A DNA stretch of 64,000 nucleotides from Candidatus Eiseniibacteriota bacterium (GTDB taxonomy: Bacteria; Eisenbacteria; RBG-16-71-46; CAIMUX01; VGJL01): NCBI GenBank assembly GCA_041946735.1, contig JBHGAY010000004.1, positions 1 to 64,000 of the forward strand, written 5' to 3'. The stretch's first letter is position 1. Every line of letters starts with the position of its first letter. Shown here in pieces: positions 23,696 through 30,868 of the stretch. Position numbers and translations under genes: made by a program. The notes beneath the pieces were generated by a model. It had not been told where the DNA came from. It was given only the letters and a program-made list of their open reading frames with translations, and did no database searches.

Positions 23696-24391
23696 CTACC
23701 GGAAGCTCTGCTTGACCTTCCCCCAGGTCGTGTTCTGCGTCGCGACCGGGTTGTATATGGTGAGCGAGAGGTCGTCCCAGTAGACCGGGCTGGCGCTGTT
23801 GGCGAAGAGGTCGATGCAGGCGATGTCCAGAACGCCACCGCCGCTGACCCCGTCCGTCCAGCTCTTCTGGTACAGCATCTGTCCGTTGAAGTAGAAGGTC
23901 TGGATGTTCAGATCGAGATCGATGATCACGTAGACTTCGACCCACTGGTCGTAGACCAGCGGAAGGGTGTCGGTCTCCGGATCGGAGACGATGATGTCGT
24001 TGGCGCCGTCGAAGTAGACCTGCGAGGACCAGTTGTACGGACCGCCGTCATTGTACGTGTTCAGCAGGAGGATGTAGTTGATCCCGCTGAGCGACGACGG
24101 AATGTACACCCAACCCCTGAGCTCGTTGACCCCGGACGTGTAGCCGTCCCACTCGTGCACGATGTCGGTCGCGCCCGTGATGGAGACGGAGTTCGAGGGG
24201 CTGTGCGAGTAGAGATCGGTCACGTAGGCATCGGCGGCGGGGTTGCCGTCCCAGCCGTGCCATCCGCCCTGTCCGTGAAGTCCGCTTCCGACGACGTAGG
24301 AATCGAAGTTCTCGAACCAATCGGCCGAGGCGATCCCAGGAAGCGCCGCGAAGGCCAGAATCGAGCAGAACAGTAGTAGCTTGTGCTTCAT
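23696..24391 (-). CDS. Secreted hypothetical protein with C-terminal TTWGKVKQSFR motif
   Basis: GGAGGAG RBS, signal peptide ending ASA, ENFDSY..GLHGQGGW, YWDDLSL, C-terminus NPVATQNTTWGKVKQSFR. Confidence 0.85.
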   Translation of the reverse strand: MKHKLLLFCSILAFAALPGIASADWFENFDSYVVGSGLHGQGGWHGWDGNPAADAYVTDLYSHSPSNSVSITGATDIVHEWDGYTSGVNELRGWVYIPSSLSGINYILLLNTYNDGGPYNWSSQVYFDGANDIIVSDPETDTLPLVYDQWVEVYVIIDLDLNIQTFYFNGQMLYQKSWTDGVSGGGVLDIACIDLFANSASPVYWDDLSLTIYNPVATQNTTWGKVKQSFR

Positions 24392-24714
24392 GAGCCACTC
24401 CTCCTGATCGTTGTTGCCGAGCCCGGGCGATTCTCCGGCCGATCTTTTCAGCCGGAGCGAGCGCTCCATTGGCAGCGCACCAATGGTACCACGCCGCCGG
24501 TGGCAGAGGGTCGCAAAACGTGCGGGGACCGGGCACTAGCCGGCCGCAGTGTCGCCTCTATTTGACAATCGACCAGCCCCCTCCGGGACTCCCGTCATGA
24601 ACGGTTCGCCGGGCTCCCCGGACCGCGGACCGCGGCGCCCGGACCGCGGGTGTCAAACGGCGGCGCGGGCCGAAAGCCGTACGACAGCGGACGGACGAGC
24701 GGACCCCCGGCGGG

Positions 24715-26100: not shown

Positions 26101-26148
26101 TCAGCGCTCCGCTAACGATCAGCGCTCCGCTGACGATCAGCGCTCCGC
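26101..26148 (-). repeat. 18-nt-period triplication of the oxidoreductase gene 3' end
   Basis: tcagcgctccgc at 26101, 26119, 26137. Confidence 0.85.
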
Positions 26149-27195
26149 GTCGATCCGCAGGAGCACCTTCCCGACGTTCTCGTTCCGCTGGAGGATCGCG
26201 TGAGCCTCCTCCGCTCGCTCGACGGGAAGGATCGCGTGCACGATCGGCCGGATCGCCCCCGCTTCGAAACGGGGCCAGAGCGCGCGTCGCATCCGCTCGA
26301 GGATCGCCGCCTTCTCGCCAGCGGGACGGGAACGCAGGACGCTCCCGATGATGCGCAGCCGCCTCGAGAGCAGCGGGCGGAGATCGATCCTCGCCTCTCC
26401 ACCCCGCATCAGGCCGACCACGATCCACCGTCCGCCGGGATTGAGCAAGGTCAGCATCCCCCCCAGATCCTCGCCGCCGAGGCAATCGAGGACCACGTCG
26501 ATCCCCGGCGCGGGCGGCGCGGCCGGCGCTGCCGGTGGCGGCGCGGCCTCCGCGGGCGGGCGGGCGAGCGAGCGCAACCGCTCCAGGACGTCCTCGCGGT
26601 GGCGATCGATGACGACGTCGGCGCCCAGGGCACGCACCCGCTCCGCCTTCGGCTCGGAGCCGACCGTCGTGACGATGCGGGCCCCTCGGTCCTTCGCGAT
26701 CTGGATCGCCGCCGTCCCTACGCCGCTCGCGCCCGCGTGGACGACAACCGTCTCCCCGCGCGCGAGCCGTCCCTCGAGCACGAGGTTCAGGAAGGCGGTG
26801 GTGAACGCTTCGGGGATCGCGGCGGCCTCCTCGATCGACAGTCCCGCCGGGATCGGGAGGACGTGGCGCGCGTCGACGGCGACCTTCTCCGCGTAGCCTC
26901 CCCCCGACAGGAGGCAGCAGACGGGATCGCCGGGATGCCACGCCGGCGTCGCCGCGGCCCGGCCGATTCGAGCGAGTGGAGCGCCGGCCGACTCGATATT
27001 GCCGGCCGCTTCGAGCCCCATCCACTCGGGAGCGCCGGCGGGAGGCGGGTAGAGCCCGCGACGCTGGAGCAGGTCGCCCCGGTTGACGCCGCAGGCGCGG
27101 ACGCGCACGACCACTTCGCCGGGGCCCGGGACCGGATCGGGGACTTCGCTCCACCGCAGGCTCCGGTCGTCCGGGTCGATCATGATTGCGCGCAT
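26137..27195 (-). CDS. NAD(P)H-quinone oxidoreductase, zeta-crystallin/PIG3 family
   Basis: GVNRGDLLQRRGLYPPP, GLEAAG, GGGYAE, HAGASGVG, GSVLRSR, NVGKVLL. Confidence 0.92.
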   Translation of the reverse strand: MRAIMIDPDDRSLRWSEVPDPVPGPGEVVVRVRACGVNRGDLLQRRGLYPPPAGAPEWMGLEAAGNIESAGAPLARIGRAAATPAWHPGDPVCCLLSGGGYAEKVAVDARHVLPIPAGLSIEEAAAIPEAFTTAFLNLVLEGRLARGETVVVHAGASGVGTAAIQIAKDRGARIVTTVGSEPKAERVRALGADVVIDRHREDVLERLRSLARPPAEAAPPPAAPAAPPAPGIDVVLDCLGGEDLGGMLTLLNPGGRWIVVGLMRGGEARIDLRPLLSRRLRIIGSVLRSRPAGEKAAILERMRRALWPRFEAGAIRPIVHAILPVERAEEAHAILQRNENVGKVLLRIDAER

Positions 27196-27396
27196 CGATC
27201 CCTCCTCGCCCTCTCGGCAGCCGCTCACGGCGCTCCCGGCCGCTCTCGAGCCCGGAATCCGCCGGCGCGCACGAGGGCAGCTTCGAGCCTCGCGTGCGCC
27301 GGTATCCTACCAAGCGCATCACGATCCCGAGAGCCGGCCGCTTCCCCGGAAGTCCCATCGTCGCTATGCTCTCGCGAGTATTGCCTTCGAGAGGAG

Positions 27397-29391
27397 ATGG
27401 CGATCTTGCAGAGCGTTCCATCGATCGACTACCAGGAGCTCGGCTTGAAGGCCGGGCTCGAGGTCCACCAGCAGCTCCTGACCGACACGAAGATGTTCTG
27501 CCACTGCCCCGCCGGCCGCTACACGGAGACCCACGATGGGGAAGTGCTGCGGCACATGCGTCCCACGCTTTCCGAGCTGGGGGAGTACGACGGGACGGCG
27601 CTCATGGAGTTCCGGACCAAGAAGAACATCATCTACCTGCTGCACAAGGAAAACGTCTGCACTTACGAAATGGACGACACGCCCCCCTTCCTGGTCAATC
27701 AGGAAGCGATCGACATCGCGATCGAGCAGTGTTTGATGCTGGGGTGCGACATCGTCGACGAGGTGCACATCGCGCGCAAGCAGTACCTCGACGGATCGAT
27801 CCCGACCGGCTTCCAGCGCACGGCGATCGTGGGCGTCAACGGCAGGCTTCCGTTTCGCGGCCGCGAGATCTCGATCACGCAGGTCAGCGTCGAGGAGGAT
27901 TCGTGCCGGGAGGTCTCGGACCGCGGGCACCTGATCGTCTGGCGGACGGACCGGCTCGGCATGCCGCTCATCGAGACGGTGACAGGTCCCGACCTGCGCA
28001 CTCCCGAGGAGGTCGAGGAGGCGATCCTGCTGATCGGGCGCGTGTGCCGGAGCACCGGGCACGTGCGGGTCGGGATCGGCGCGAGCCGGCAGGACGTCAA
28101 TGTCTCGGTGCGCGGCGGGCGGCGGGTGGAAATCAAGGGGGTGCCGCAGGCGCATTGGGCGAGGCGTCTCGTCCACGGCGAAGCGATCCGCCAATGGAAC
28201 CTGCTGCGGCTGCGAGACGATCTGCGCCGGCGCGGCTTCGAGAAGCCGGCAGATCTCCGCATCGACGGCTTCAACGTCACCGACGTCTTCGCGGCGAGCG
28301 CGCTGCAGCAGCTGCGGGCCGAATCGTGGGAGCGCTGGGTGGCGACGACCGGCCGGCGGGTGGGCTTCGAGTTGCGGCCGGGACCGTTCTGCGTGCGCGC
28401 CATCCTCTTGAAGGGCCTCGCCGGCGCGCTGAGCTGGCCGACGCAGCCGGACTTGACGTTCGCCGCCGAGCTGGCGGGACGCGTGCGGGTGATCGCCGGG
28501 CTCGATCAGGCGCCGATCCTCTATCACGACGAGAAGTGGCCGGACTACGAGGGCTCGGTCGCCGAGTTGCGGCGGGTTCGCAACCGCCTTCGCTGCGATC
28601 CCGGCGATGCGATCGTCGTCGTCTGGGGGTCCGAAGAGGACACGATCACGGCGATGGAGGAGATCCGCACCCGCTTCGCCGACGCGCTCGACGGCGTCCC
28701 GAACGAGACGCGGCAGCCGTTCCAGGATGGGCGGACCGATTTCGAGCGCATCCTTCCGGGACCCGACCGGATGTATCCGGATACCGACAGCCCTCCGTCG
28801 CTCGTCACGCGCGAGCGCGTCGAGCGGTTGCGCCGCGATCTCGCGCCGCGCCCGTGGGAGCGGGAGGCGCGCTACGCGGCGGCCGGGGTGCCGCTCCCCA
28901 CGATCCACTACCTGATCCGCCGCAACGGCGCCGCTCTCGTCGACCGCGTCGCGGAATCGTGCGGGGCCGACCTGCGACATGCCTGCTTCTTCTTCGGCGA
29001 GCGGCTGAAGGGACTCCGCAGGGCGGGGATCGCGGTCCGTTCGATCCCCGAGGAGCGATGGTGCGAGCTGTTCCGAGCGATCGCGGAGCGGCCGATCTTG
29101 CGCGAAGCCTGGGAAGTCCTCGTGCGGAAGATGGCGAGCGCGCCGCCGGCCAGTGTCGCGGAGATCCTCGCGACCGAGGGGCTCGGCGCGGCGCCGGCGC
29201 GCTGGCGGGAGATCGTGGACAGACAGATCGACGCGGCTCGGAGAGATCTCTACGAAGAGGATCCCGGCCGGCTGCGGCGTCTTGCGATGGGAAGGTGCAT
29301 GGCGGTCCTTCGCGGGAAGGTGCCCGCGAAGGAGGTGGCGGCGGCGCTGGACGAGAGCCTCGCGGCGAGGAGCGTGCATGGCCGGGGATGA
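27397..29391 (+). CDS. gatE: Glu-tRNA(Gln) amidotransferase subunit E (archaeal type)
   Basis: DYQELGLKAGLEVHQQL, RPTLSELGEYD, RKQYLDGSIPTGFQRT, EEDSCR, DRLGMPLIE, RQDVNVS, EIKGV, AspRS-like insertion, GVPNETR, RILPGPDRMYPDTD; GAGGAG RBS. Confidence 0.93.
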   Translation: MAILQSVPSIDYQELGLKAGLEVHQQLLTDTKMFCHCPAGRYTETHDGEVLRHMRPTLSELGEYDGTALMEFRTKKNIIYLLHKENVCTYEMDDTPPFLVNQEAIDIAIEQCLMLGCDIVDEVHIARKQYLDGSIPTGFQRTAIVGVNGRLPFRGREISITQVSVEEDSCREVSDRGHLIVWRTDRLGMPLIETVTGPDLRTPEEVEEAILLIGRVCRSTGHVRVGIGASRQDVNVSVRGGRRVEIKGVPQAHWARRLVHGEAIRQWNLLRLRDDLRRRGFEKPADLRIDGFNVTDVFAASALQQLRAESWERWVATTGRRVGFELRPGPFCVRAILLKGLAGALSWPTQPDLTFAAELAGRVRVIAGLDQAPILYHDEKWPDYEGSVAELRRVRNRLRCDPGDAIVVVWGSEEDTITAMEEIRTRFADALDGVPNETRQPFQDGRTDFERILPGPDRMYPDTDSPPSLVTRERVERLRRDLAPRPWEREARYAAAGVPLPTIHYLIRRNGAALVDRVAESCGADLRHACFFFGERLKGLRRAGIAVRSIPEERWCELFRAIAERPILREAWEVLVRKMASAPPASVAEILATEGLGAAPARWREIVDRQIDAARRDLYEEDPGRLRRLAMGRCMAVLRGKVPAKEVAAALDESLAARSVHGRG

Positions 29392-30766
29392 CCTGAAGGG
29401 ATACAAGGGGCGGGCGCGGGCGAAGCTGGCCGAGCTGGGCGTACGCGTCTGGAGCGACGTGCGCCTGCGCAACGACGCGGGGAGCGTGTTCGAGGGGGTG
29501 ATCCTGCCGCGGAGCGAGACGCTCGACGACGCGCATGTCGTGATCAAGATGAAGAACGGCTACAACGTCGGCGTGCACATCGACCGGATCGCGGAGGTGC
29601 AGGAGGTCGGCTACAAGGAAGCGGTCTACAAGATCCCCGAGAAGGAATTCCCGCGGCGCCCCGACCTGCCGTCGGTCACGCTGCTCGGAACCGGCGGGAC
29701 GATCGCCTCTCGCCTGGACTACCGGACCGGAGCGGTCATCCCCGCCTTCACGCCGGGCGAGTTGTACGGCGCCGTTCCGGAGCTGGCGGACATCTGCAAT
29801 CTCACGACGAAGAAGATCTTCGGCGTCTTCTCCGAGAACATGTCGAAGGATCAGTACATCGAGCTGGCGCAAGCGATCGGCGCGGAGATCGAGGGGGGAG
29901 CCGACGGGATCGTAATCGGCCATGGCACCGACACGATGGGGCACACCGCCGCGATTCTCTCCTTCATGGTGCAGAACTCCCCGGTGCCGATCGTCCTGGT
30001 CGGATCGCAGCGCTCGAGCGACCGCCCGTCGAGTGACGCCGCGCTGAACCTGATCCATTCCGTCCGGTCGGCGGCATACGGCGAAATCGCCGAGGTCGTC
30101 ATCTGCATGTTCGGGCCGACCTCCGACCGCTACGGGCTGCTTCATCGCGGGACGCGATGCCGCAAGATGCACAGCTCCTACCGCAGCACGTTCCGGACGG
30201 TGGGAGACACTCCGCTCGCGACGGTGAGCCGCGACGAGTTTTCCTACCTGACGGCAGACTTCCGCCGGCGGGACCGTTCGCGGAAGGTCGTCGTCGATCC
30301 GGTCTACGACGACCGGGCCACGATCCTCTACTACTACCCGGGTATGCGTCCGGATCTCGTCGATGCGCTCGTCGAGAAGGGGTATCGCGGGATCGTGATA
30401 GCCGGGACCGGCCTCGGCCACGTGAACAAGCCGCTCTACCCGGCGTTGAAGCGCGCGGTCGCCGCGGGCGTGCATATCGTCATGACCGTGCAAACGCTCT
30501 GGGGATATGCGCAGATGTATGTCTACGACACGGGGCGCGACCTGATCGACATCGGCGTCGTGCCGCTCGACAACATGCTCCCCGAGACCGCGCTGATGAA
30601 GCTCTCCTGGGTGCTCGCTCACACGGACGACCACGACGAGGTGATGCGAATGATGCGTCGCTCCATCAGCCACGAGATCACCTCGCGGGAGCCGCACAAC
30701 GGGTACCTGATCCTTCAGGGAGGGCTGCCCGACACCGAGGAGTTCATCGCTTCGCACTGGAAGTAG
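29378..30766 (+). CDS. gatD: Glu-tRNA(Gln) amidotransferase subunit D (asparaginase-like glutaminase, archaeal type)
   Basis: GatD-specific N-terminal domain (EGVILPR...IKMKNGYNVG), GTGGTIASRLDY, HGTDTM, GSQRSSDRPSSDA, HRGTRCRKMHSS, GTGLGHV, MLPETALMKL; overlaps gatE by 14 nt. Confidence 0.93.
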   Translation: MAGDDLKGYKGRARAKLAELGVRVWSDVRLRNDAGSVFEGVILPRSETLDDAHVVIKMKNGYNVGVHIDRIAEVQEVGYKEAVYKIPEKEFPRRPDLPSVTLLGTGGTIASRLDYRTGAVIPAFTPGELYGAVPELADICNLTTKKIFGVFSENMSKDQYIELAQAIGAEIEGGADGIVIGHGTDTMGHTAAILSFMVQNSPVPIVLVGSQRSSDRPSSDAALNLIHSVRSAAYGEIAEVVICMFGPTSDRYGLLHRGTRCRKMHSSYRSTFRTVGDTPLATVSRDEFSYLTADFRRRDRSRKVVVDPVYDDRATILYYYPGMRPDLVDALVEKGYRGIVIAGTGLGHVNKPLYPALKRAVAAGVHIVMTVQTLWGYAQMYVYDTGRDLIDIGVVPLDNMLPETALMKLSWVLAHTDDHDEVMRMMRRSISHEITSREPHNGYLILQGGLPDTEEFIASHWK

Positions 30767-30868
30767 GCGCGGGTGGGCGGTCGGCTGGCTGGCGGCCGGC
30801 GGACGGCCGGCGGGCTGGCTGGCTCGGACGATGGGCCGGCGGCTGGCGCCCCGGGCCTGCGCGCCATC

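Follow-up and report, generated by a model that had tools for sequence, protein, structure and literature searches.

In archaea, the tRNA-dependent amidotransferases show a division of labor, whereby GatDE serves glutamine and GatCAB serves asparagine. GatDE has been described as an 'archaeal signature protein' (PMC2330236) that, in the words of another study, 'occurs exclusively in archaea' (PMC2811023), and a proposal summarized in PMC9499178 holds that it was already present in LUCA (last universal common ancestor). Reviews from 2008 to 2022 treat it as archaea-only and build on this arguments regarding LUCA, the co-evolution of tRNAGln with GatDE, and why archaea never adopted GlnRS. Among bacteria, Thermus, Deinococcus, and Bdellovibrio keep GatCAB beside both AsnRS and GlnRS for tRNA-dependent asparagine synthesis (PMC4206432). 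Here, we analyze a gatE-gatD gene pair from a Candidatus Eiseniibacteriota bacterium, which lies within the opening 64 kb of a contig 214 kb long (JBHGAY010000004.1, positions 1 to 64,000; henceforth the window) of a metagenome-assembled genome (MAG), which we designate G000, with G001 onward denoting the other genomes compared. We are highly confident that the pair is a functional GatDE of a distinct bacterial clade that is accessory in G000. More specifically, with a rough probability of 0.45, we read it as an accessory enzyme for tRNA-dependent asparagine synthesis.

At the level of the proteins, the pair closely parallels the archaeal enzymes of Pyrococcus abyssi (1ZQ1) and Methanothermobacter thermautotrophicus (2D6F, with tRNAGln), with the same two subunits and the same domain order. 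GatE is 32-34% identical to its archaeal counterparts (TM 0.81-0.84), and GatD matches them at E ~1e-118. The best PDB matches are archaeal chains for both GatE (1zq1_C, 1.2e-93; 2d6f_C, 6.6e-83) and GatD (1zq1_A, 9.8e-119; 2d6f_A, 2.8e-117), and each protein exceeds the cut-offs of its NCBIfam equivalogs: NF003107 (484.9 bits, cut-off 456) and TIGR00134 (429.2, cut-off 319.55) for GatE, and NF003217 (500.2, cut-off 310) and TIGR02153 (499.7, cut-off 324) for GatD. The two are accordingly genuine orthologs of GatE and GatD, as opposed to GatB or an ordinary asparaginase. In Pfam terms, a large insertion interrupts the GatB_N domain of GatE, in which residues 18-475 correspond to profile positions 2-276, and the GatB_Yqey tail scores marginally below the cut-off (26.1 against 27). 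GatD combines GatD_N, Asparaginase, and Asparaginase_C domains, and asparaginase catalytic motifs had been reported from the sequence alone in an initial annotation of this DNA; GTGGT, HGTDT, and RKMH are indeed retained in alignment with 1zq1 and 2d6f, covering Thr, Thr-Asp, and Lys. We take these to furnish a Thr nucleophile with a Thr-Asp-Lys triad, the motifs being read directly and the numbering of the residues being assumed. The Mg-liganding His and two Glu residues of M. thermautotrophicus GatE (His15, Glu157, and Glu184; PMC2330236) are likewise aligned and kept with respect to both crystal structures, with H24, E167, and E193 invariant in 24 sequences. An AlphaFold model of GatE based on 24 sequences (pLDDT 87.0, pTM 0.83) retrieved 1zq1_C first in a Foldseek search (E 7.7e-47, TM 0.84), followed by 2d6f and then by GatB chains, behind which ranked weak matches to bacterial AspRS chains. 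The AspRS-like insertion, also proposed initially, aligns to that of the archaeal crystal chains and is predicted to fold with confidence in this model; unlike in archaeal GatDE, it is invisible to the Pfam GAD model, which gave no match to it even at E 10.

GatE also shares features with its paralog GatB, the kinase subunit of GatCAB, namely the cradle domain, a probable YqeY-type tail, and a Tyr after an invariant Arg-Lys. Unlike GatB, which pairs with GatA and GatC, it possesses the insertion domain, a feature of GatE only, and GatB models score it at only 57-141 bits, far under their cut-offs of 315-680. The residue beside the invariant Arg-Lys of the active-site strand is Tyr in all 38 bacterial GatE sequences and all 10 GatB sequences, as against Val in 35 of 45 archaeal GatE sequences; this GatB-like Tyr may be a weak lead toward an asparagine role of bacterial GatE. 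The bacterial clade has further invariant residues of its own (positions 54, 67, 89, 90, 94, 95, 130, 184, and 462) and a strictly conserved surface at residues 53-76 and 89-95 that is absent from archaeal GatE. A tail motif that PMC2811023 credits with telling Glu- from Asp-substrates varies within both GatE clades and shows no clean difference between them.

The case for an asparagine role comes primarily from the phyletic pattern of the ammonia-dependent asparagine synthetase AsnA. Our comparison covered 41 genomes from one GTDB class, namely G000 and 40 relatives; 10 of them encode GatE, each next to a GatD above the cut-off and with the order of the two genes unchanged. None of these 10 genomes gives a match to AsnA, whereas it is matched in 28 of the 31 genomes without GatDE (23 above the cut-off and five marginally under it or fragmentary), an exclusion for which the Fisher p of 2.6e-7 is overstated because kin are not independent. 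The contrast recurs between close relatives, namely in genus g10 (G010 with GatDE versus G028), in genus g14 (G018 and G030 with GatDE versus G014 and G026), and in family f1 (G000 and G005 with GatDE versus G001-G004), and the GatE genes involved are of separate origins. No such association with AsnA is seen for GatB, with AsnA missing from five of 20 genomes with GatB and from eight of 21 without it (p = 0.51). In an unrelated sample of 61 genomes akin to a Bacteroidales-type chromosome, 29 carry GatE and none of these has AsnA, as opposed to seven of the 32 without GatE (p = 0.011). GatDE and AsnA therefore exclude each other in two lineages, and this exclusion distinguishes the bacterial enzyme from archaeal GatDE.

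As for the visible routes to asparagine, five genomes of the class have neither AsnA nor any member of the AsnB family, and all five carry an amidotransferase. In two of them, G010 (92% complete) and G011 (99% complete), no amidotransferase other than GatDE is seen; G018 and G030 are also without AsnA and AsnB. Conversely, AsnA and/or AsnB is found in all 14 genomes of the class that have no amidotransferase. The exclusion of AsnA by GatDE in the class and the two relatives in which GatDE is the only visible route to asparagine are the new observations of this work. We also looked for in situ replacement of asnA by gatED; the AsnA loci of six GatDE-minus kin showed no synteny with the gatED loci of five GatDE-plus genomes, the only match being weak and unrelated. 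As a separate matter, AsnA and AspRS of G004 (7 contigs) each lie in adjacent pieces in different frames (G004:C1:1590446-1591404 and G004:C1:1413004-1414750), which look like long-read assembly indel errors rather than pseudogenes.

G000 itself encodes GlnRS (733 bits), AsnRS (464.6 bits), a single bacterial GluRS beside glnS, a single bacterial-type AspRS, and two AsnB-family genes above the TIGR01536 cut-off (456 and 342 bits), neither of which attains the cut-off set for any more specific model. GatB and GatA were not found in this genome, the sole GatB match being GatE itself (90 bits) and the top GatA match an amidase (174 bits against a cut-off of 481), and AsnA returned zero matches. 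The glnS and gltX genes are opposite-strand neighbors (G000:C22:12939-16056), and many relatives (e.g., G005, G004, G024, and G014) likewise have them no more than a few kb apart. We took the GluRS residue aligned to Arg358 of T. thermophilus as a marker of discriminating enzymes; it is Arg in G000, but it is also Arg in the GlnRS-less, GatCAB-bearing kin G036 and G031, and the marker is uninformative because it fails this internal control (among 41 rows, Arg in 25, Gly in one, from G035a, and no letter in 15, for which the wrong frame or a fragment was picked). For a non-discriminating AspRS, we know of no reliable sequence marker. Across the class, GlnRS is above the cut-off in 37 of the 41 genomes, including all 10 with GatDE, and the four others all carry GatB; AsnRS is above it in 38, and GatB in 20, three of them with GatDE, leaving 14 with neither amidotransferase. 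Some peculiarities of these synthetases may be recorded here: G023 (with GatDE) and G035 (with no amidotransferase) have two GluRS-like genes each; the AsnRS proteins of the class fall into two types on TIGR00457 (~620-650 versus ~450-480 bits, G000 being low and G005 high) with no obvious link to GatDE; and G002, which has AsnA and neither GatDE nor GatB, encodes a second bacterial-type AspRS paralog, L189 (G002:C12:16874-18625), 46% identical to its main AspRS.

The tRNAGln genes of G000 are bacterial in type. ARAGORN predicts a UUG and a CUG tRNAGln, each carrying U1-A72, G73, and a 7-nt D-loop, and a tRNAAsn with U1-A72 and a 7-nt D-loop, as opposed to tRNAGlu and tRNAAsp, which have G1 and longer D-loops; it predicts no archaeal-type A1-U72 tRNAGln or extra tRNA in this genome. 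U1-A72 and the D-loop are the elements read by bacterial amidotransferases, whereas archaeal GatDE reads A1-U72 of tRNAGln (PMC2330236). With GlnRS present and both tRNAGln genes of the U1-A72 type, the archaeal-like Gln-tRNA pathway that the initial annotation had inferred is not supported. Since GlnRS and AsnRS are both encoded, GatDE is not an essential charging route, and, given also the two AsnB-like genes and the absence of a detected GatCAB, an archaeal-style Gln-tRNA pathway is unneeded; on paper, G000 requires GatDE for neither Gln-tRNAGln nor Asn-tRNAAsn. This differs from the archaeal signature, where GatDE is the sole Gln-tRNAGln route of GlnRS-less hosts. By its AsnRS, GlnRS, amidotransferase, single bacterial-type AspRS, U1-A72 tRNAAsn, and want of AsnA, G000 instead resembles the GatCAB-bearing genomes of Thermus thermophilus, Deinococcus radiodurans, and Bdellovibrio bacteriovorus, and G010 and G011 resemble these further in being without AsnB. 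Unlike in the Thermus-type systems, the glutaminase subunit is an unrelated one with an asparaginase fold (GatD) in place of an amidase fold, the insertion domain of GatE is predicted to clash with AspRS, and G000 retains AsnB-like genes. Among the tRNAs, the predicted tRNAGlu(CUC), lying outside the window at G000:C18:29827-29898, has a G1-U72 wobble pair and A73, while tRNAGlu(UUC) has the normal G1-C72.

Bacterial GatDE extends well beyond this class. A GatE search of 1.84 billion cluster representatives recovered 648 proteins at E <= 1e-30, and in the GTDB species genomes at least 597 confirmed GatE stretches were found among the 600 matches listed. The best 80 of these 600 loci are all from Bacteria and cover ~20 phyla, including Bacteroidota, Ignavibacteriota, Acidobacteriota, Planctomycetota, Myxococcota, Zixibacteria, Fermentibacteria, and Krumholzibacteria, in keeping with the earlier expectation of similar annotations in other uncultured bacteria; the closest named GatE homologs among the matches listed are 66-75% identical and are labeled Acidobacteriota, Vicinamibacterales, and Eisenbacteria. 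The AspRS of G000 clusters at 90% identity or more with an NCBI protein labeled Candidatus Eisenbacteria, but in view of the mixed GatE labels we regard the phylum assignment of G000 as approximate. The bacterial GatDE clade is thus labeled in databases yet overlooked by the literature: full-text searches returned statements on archaeal GatDE only and no discussion of a bacterial version.

In a FastTree phylogeny of 156 GatE rows, comprising 106 representatives kept from the top 150 once 44 with lengths beyond 590-720 aa had been dropped, the 40 of the 80 named loci that gave near-full matches (five with one in-frame stop read as X), and the 10 class genomes, the sequences split into groups of 83 and 73 with support 100. 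One side holds all 40 named bacterial loci together with the 10 class genomes. On the opposite side, six of 13 rows that were looked up have organism labels, each of them archaeal (Heimdallarchaeota, Thorarchaeota, Odinarchaeota, Hodarchaeales, Lokiarchaeum, and a DPANN lineage), as against none of seven looked up on the bacterial side. The 10 class GatE genes are dispersed over at least six bacterial subclades, where their partners are from Acidobacteriota, Holophagaceae, Myxococcota, a 'delta proteobacterium', Fermentibacteria, and Zixibacteria/Ignavibacteria; the gatED cassette has therefore moved among bacteria repeatedly, and the placement of the class genes points to their separate acquisition.

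To root this split, we used 93 hand-picked rows, including 10 GatB outgroup sequences and 45 archaeal rows, under LG+G4 in IQ-TREE. The bacterial GatE clade was recovered whole (100/100) and GatB as a separate clade (100/100), so that GatE does not group with GatB. The bacterial clade emerged as sister to a Heimdall-labeled row (99/95) within a group of all five Asgard-labeled rows (97/75), and a quick tree also nested it beside Asgard GatE. However, constraining the archaeal rows together gave a likelihood 14.5 lnL better than the free IQ-TREE search (p-AU 0.636) and, on the quick tree, 112 lnL better than the free search (p-AU 0.975). Archaeal monophyly is not rejected by the AU test, and we therefore claim no donor. 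What stands is that the bacterial clade joins the archaeal tree beside Asgard sequences; the GatB rooting does not decide between its nesting there, as expected of one old transfer, and its being sister to all sampled archaeal GatE. The notion of an old, ameliorated transfer advanced in the initial annotation proves too simple for a large clade shuffled among bacteria, whose archaeal descent is not settled by the AU test.

On the reading that we prefer, and by analogy to the archaeal enzyme, GatD would hydrolyze either Gln or Asn and so free ammonia, which would pass through a tunnel to GatE; there, the side-chain carboxylate of a mischarged aminoacyl-tRNA would be phosphorylated by ATP and then amidated. 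The single bacterial-type AspRS would be non-discriminating and make Asp-tRNAAsn, and GatDE would amidate this so that asparagine is made on the tRNA; Glu-tRNAGln may also be accepted, as it is by bacterial GatCAB. GatDE would thereby take the place of AsnA, missing from G000 and from every GatDE-bearing relative in the class. We advance only tentatively, at rather short of even odds, the more general proposal that bacterial GatDE is an Asp-tRNAAsn or dual-specificity amidotransferase that repeatedly displaced AsnA, in a clade that may be as old as the archaeal one.

Several considerations weigh against an asparagine role. The account of archaeal GatDE in PMC2330236 has it specific for Glu-tRNAGln and rejecting Asp-tRNAAsn, and, according to modeling in the same source, a class II non-discriminating AspRS would run into the GatE insertion domain; in the G000 model this domain is kept and predicted to be well folded. 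Zero AspRS columns separate five GatDE-plus from five GatDE-minus genomes, and hence there is no sign in them of a switch to a non-discriminating AspRS. The AsnB family is present in G000, with its two genes, and in five other GatDE-bearing genomes of the class, such that G000 shows a route to asparagine besides GatDE. Further afield, AsnA and GatDE occur together in five of 50 GatDE genomes from other phyla, and in one of these five asnA lies directly upstream of gatE (Phycisphaerae, L077:1078-2115; one of the 80 loci), an arrangement that fits a supply of amide donor by AsnA as well as it does two asparagine routes in one operon. The association counts themselves derive from related and partly incomplete MAGs.

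A serious, if rather unlikely, rival is that GatDE retains its canonical job, converting Glu-tRNAGln made by a non-discriminating GluRS and so providing a second, GlnRS-independent route to Gln-tRNAGln, for example under particular nitrogen conditions. Both proteins pass the very equivalogs that NCBI uses to name the Glu-tRNA(Gln) amidotransferase, with active sites retained. In other phyla, glnA, coding for a type I glutamine synthetase, overlaps the start of gatE in two of the 80 loci (Fermentibacteria, L101:113-1675; Planctomycetaceae, L063:176-1591), and a histidine kinase and an NtrC-like sigma-54 response regulator precede gatE in three of the 80 (Table 1). These recurring neighbors tie GatDE to amide and nitrogen metabolism but do not choose between the readings. 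GlnRS and GatB are both unseen in six of the 50 GatDE genomes from other phyla; of five such 'GatDE-only' bacteria checked, three are also without GluRS and thereby betray their incompleteness, while G052 and G066 have GluRS and stay candidates for GatDE being, if these genomes are complete, the sole Gln-tRNAGln route. However, GlnRS is found in all 10 GatDE genomes of the class and in 39 of the 50 from other phyla; according to PMC4206432, no bacterium is known with both Gln-tRNAGln routes; the host tRNAGln has U1-A72 and not the pair read by archaeal GatDE; and the mutual exclusion with AsnA is left unexplained. We see no support for the canonical function beyond the family name.

A different departure, which we consider improbable, is recruitment outside translation, either as a regulated asparaginase/glutaminase-kinase acting on another carboxylate or with AsnA and glutamine synthetase needed only as suppliers of amide donors. 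The nitrogen-related neighbors in other phyla (asnA, glnA, and NtrC-like genes), the clade-specific conserved surface at residues 53-76 and 89-95, and the redundancy of GatDE on paper in G000 would be in line with this. Against it, GatE has kept its tRNA-binding tail as well as the insertion domain, both predicted to fold with confidence, archaeal GatD is reported in PMC2330236 to be inactive as a glutaminase unless mischarged tRNA is present, the 10 class loci have no conserved neighbor beyond gatE and gatD, and no alternative substrate is suggested by any data. Of the functions envisaged in the initial annotation, a repurposed one fits better than the Gln pathway, given the exclusion of AsnA in two lineages, and we favor it in the form of an asparagine role as opposed to a non-translational use. 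Finally, that the pair is an artifact or relic, be it through a chimeric contig, archaeal contamination of the bin, or a recent, unused neutral import, is very improbable. The assembly is a 72-contig MAG (4.89 Mb, 94.8% complete, 1.8% contamination), and the locus has no conserved neighbors even relative to the 85%-identical GatE copy in G005. Yet the 214-kb contig is uniform in composition, with GC flat at 0.68-0.70 across the region and GC at third codon positions (GC3) of 0.84 in gatE and 0.86 in gatD as against 0.81-0.91 in the neighbors, a host-like codon style that had been recognized at the outset. The independent metagenome run X2, which comes from a different study, contains 86% of the words sampled. 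A contig of this run spans 26898-27644, crossing the junction of the alcohol dehydrogenase gene with gatE with 0 differences, which speaks against a chimera; a second covers 30160-30834 over the end of gatD, the junction to the next gene not being spanned by one piece. Orthologs reside on long contigs of kin (e.g., one of 156 kb in G005), and the nearest relatives are bacterial. For G000 versus G005, dN/dS is 0.135 in gatE and 0.052 in gatD with no stop codons, and it is 0.12-0.28 for more distant pairs of the class; at these values (0.05-0.28) both genes are under purifying selection.

The two genes form an intact operon (Table 1) in which, as had been described, full-length gatE and gatD overlap. 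The gatE frame is open from an ATG at 27397 to a TGA ending at 29391 (664 aa). Public gene callers place its start three codons downstream, at a TTG at 27406 (661 aa), which lies 9 nt behind a GAGGAG at 27391-27396 and is thus better spaced than the ATG. The overlap measures 14 nt, a second GAGGAG lies 5 nt upstream of the gatD start, and translation of gatD is coupled to that of gatE. Around the operon, we found neither a sigma-70-like promoter nor a terminator or Rfam element.

Table 1. Features of the gatE-gatD locus (positions in the window) and regulatory gene pairs preceding gatE in other bacteria (positions in the respective loci).
Feature	Position	Strand	Remarks
gatE (kinase/transamidase subunit)	27397 or 27406..29391	+	cradle domain, AspRS-like insertion (~residues 280-470), helical domain, YqeY-like tail
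gatD (asparaginase-type glutaminase subunit, GatD N-terminal domain)	29378..30766	+	462 aa, ATG start
Divergent intergenic region, 168 bp	27229..27396	.	between Zn-dependent alcohol dehydrogenase gene and gatE; contains gatE ribosome-binding site
Zn-dependent alcohol dehydrogenase gene (ADH)	26137..27228	-	divergent from gatE
Histidine kinase and NtrC-like regulator loci	L075:3-2355, L076:3-2308, L100:4176-6640		Aegiribacteria, Fermentibacteria, one other bacterium

The surroundings of the operon are unremarkable for a bacterial chromosome. On its upstream side, an M24 peptidase gene accompanies the alcohol dehydrogenase gene, both divergent from gatE, and a short-chain dehydrogenase gene is convergent with gatD; other neighbors include DUF1579, MoaA, and a nitrate-reductase cluster. 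The RND pump, with its fusion protein, and the sigma-54 activator that had been cited as bacterial flanking genes are real, though they lie 22-29 kb from gatE-gatD and are not adjacent to it. Among nine neighboring ORFs scanned, no mobile-element family was found, as was claimed initially. Only gatE and gatD themselves are common to the 10 class loci, and G000 and G005 share no neighbor genes. An ORF elsewhere in the window (23696-24469, minus strand; 257 aa) has a high GC3 and no Pfam family.

In conclusion, a large bacterial GatDE clade that is under purifying selection, extends over ~20 phyla, and occurs alongside GlnRS undercuts the archaea-only premise. If the role in amidating Asp-tRNAAsn is true, these bacteria would make asparagine with an 'archaeal glutamine enzyme', the reverse of the archaeal division of labor, and if the bacterial clade is as old as the archaeal one, it would bear on the proposal that GatDE was present in LUCA. 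It also matters for the metabolic reconstruction of MAGs, in which genomes like G010 and G011 would otherwise come out as auxotrophic for asparagine. The mutual exclusion of GatDE and AsnA, moreover, makes the function of bacterial GatDE directly testable at the bench.

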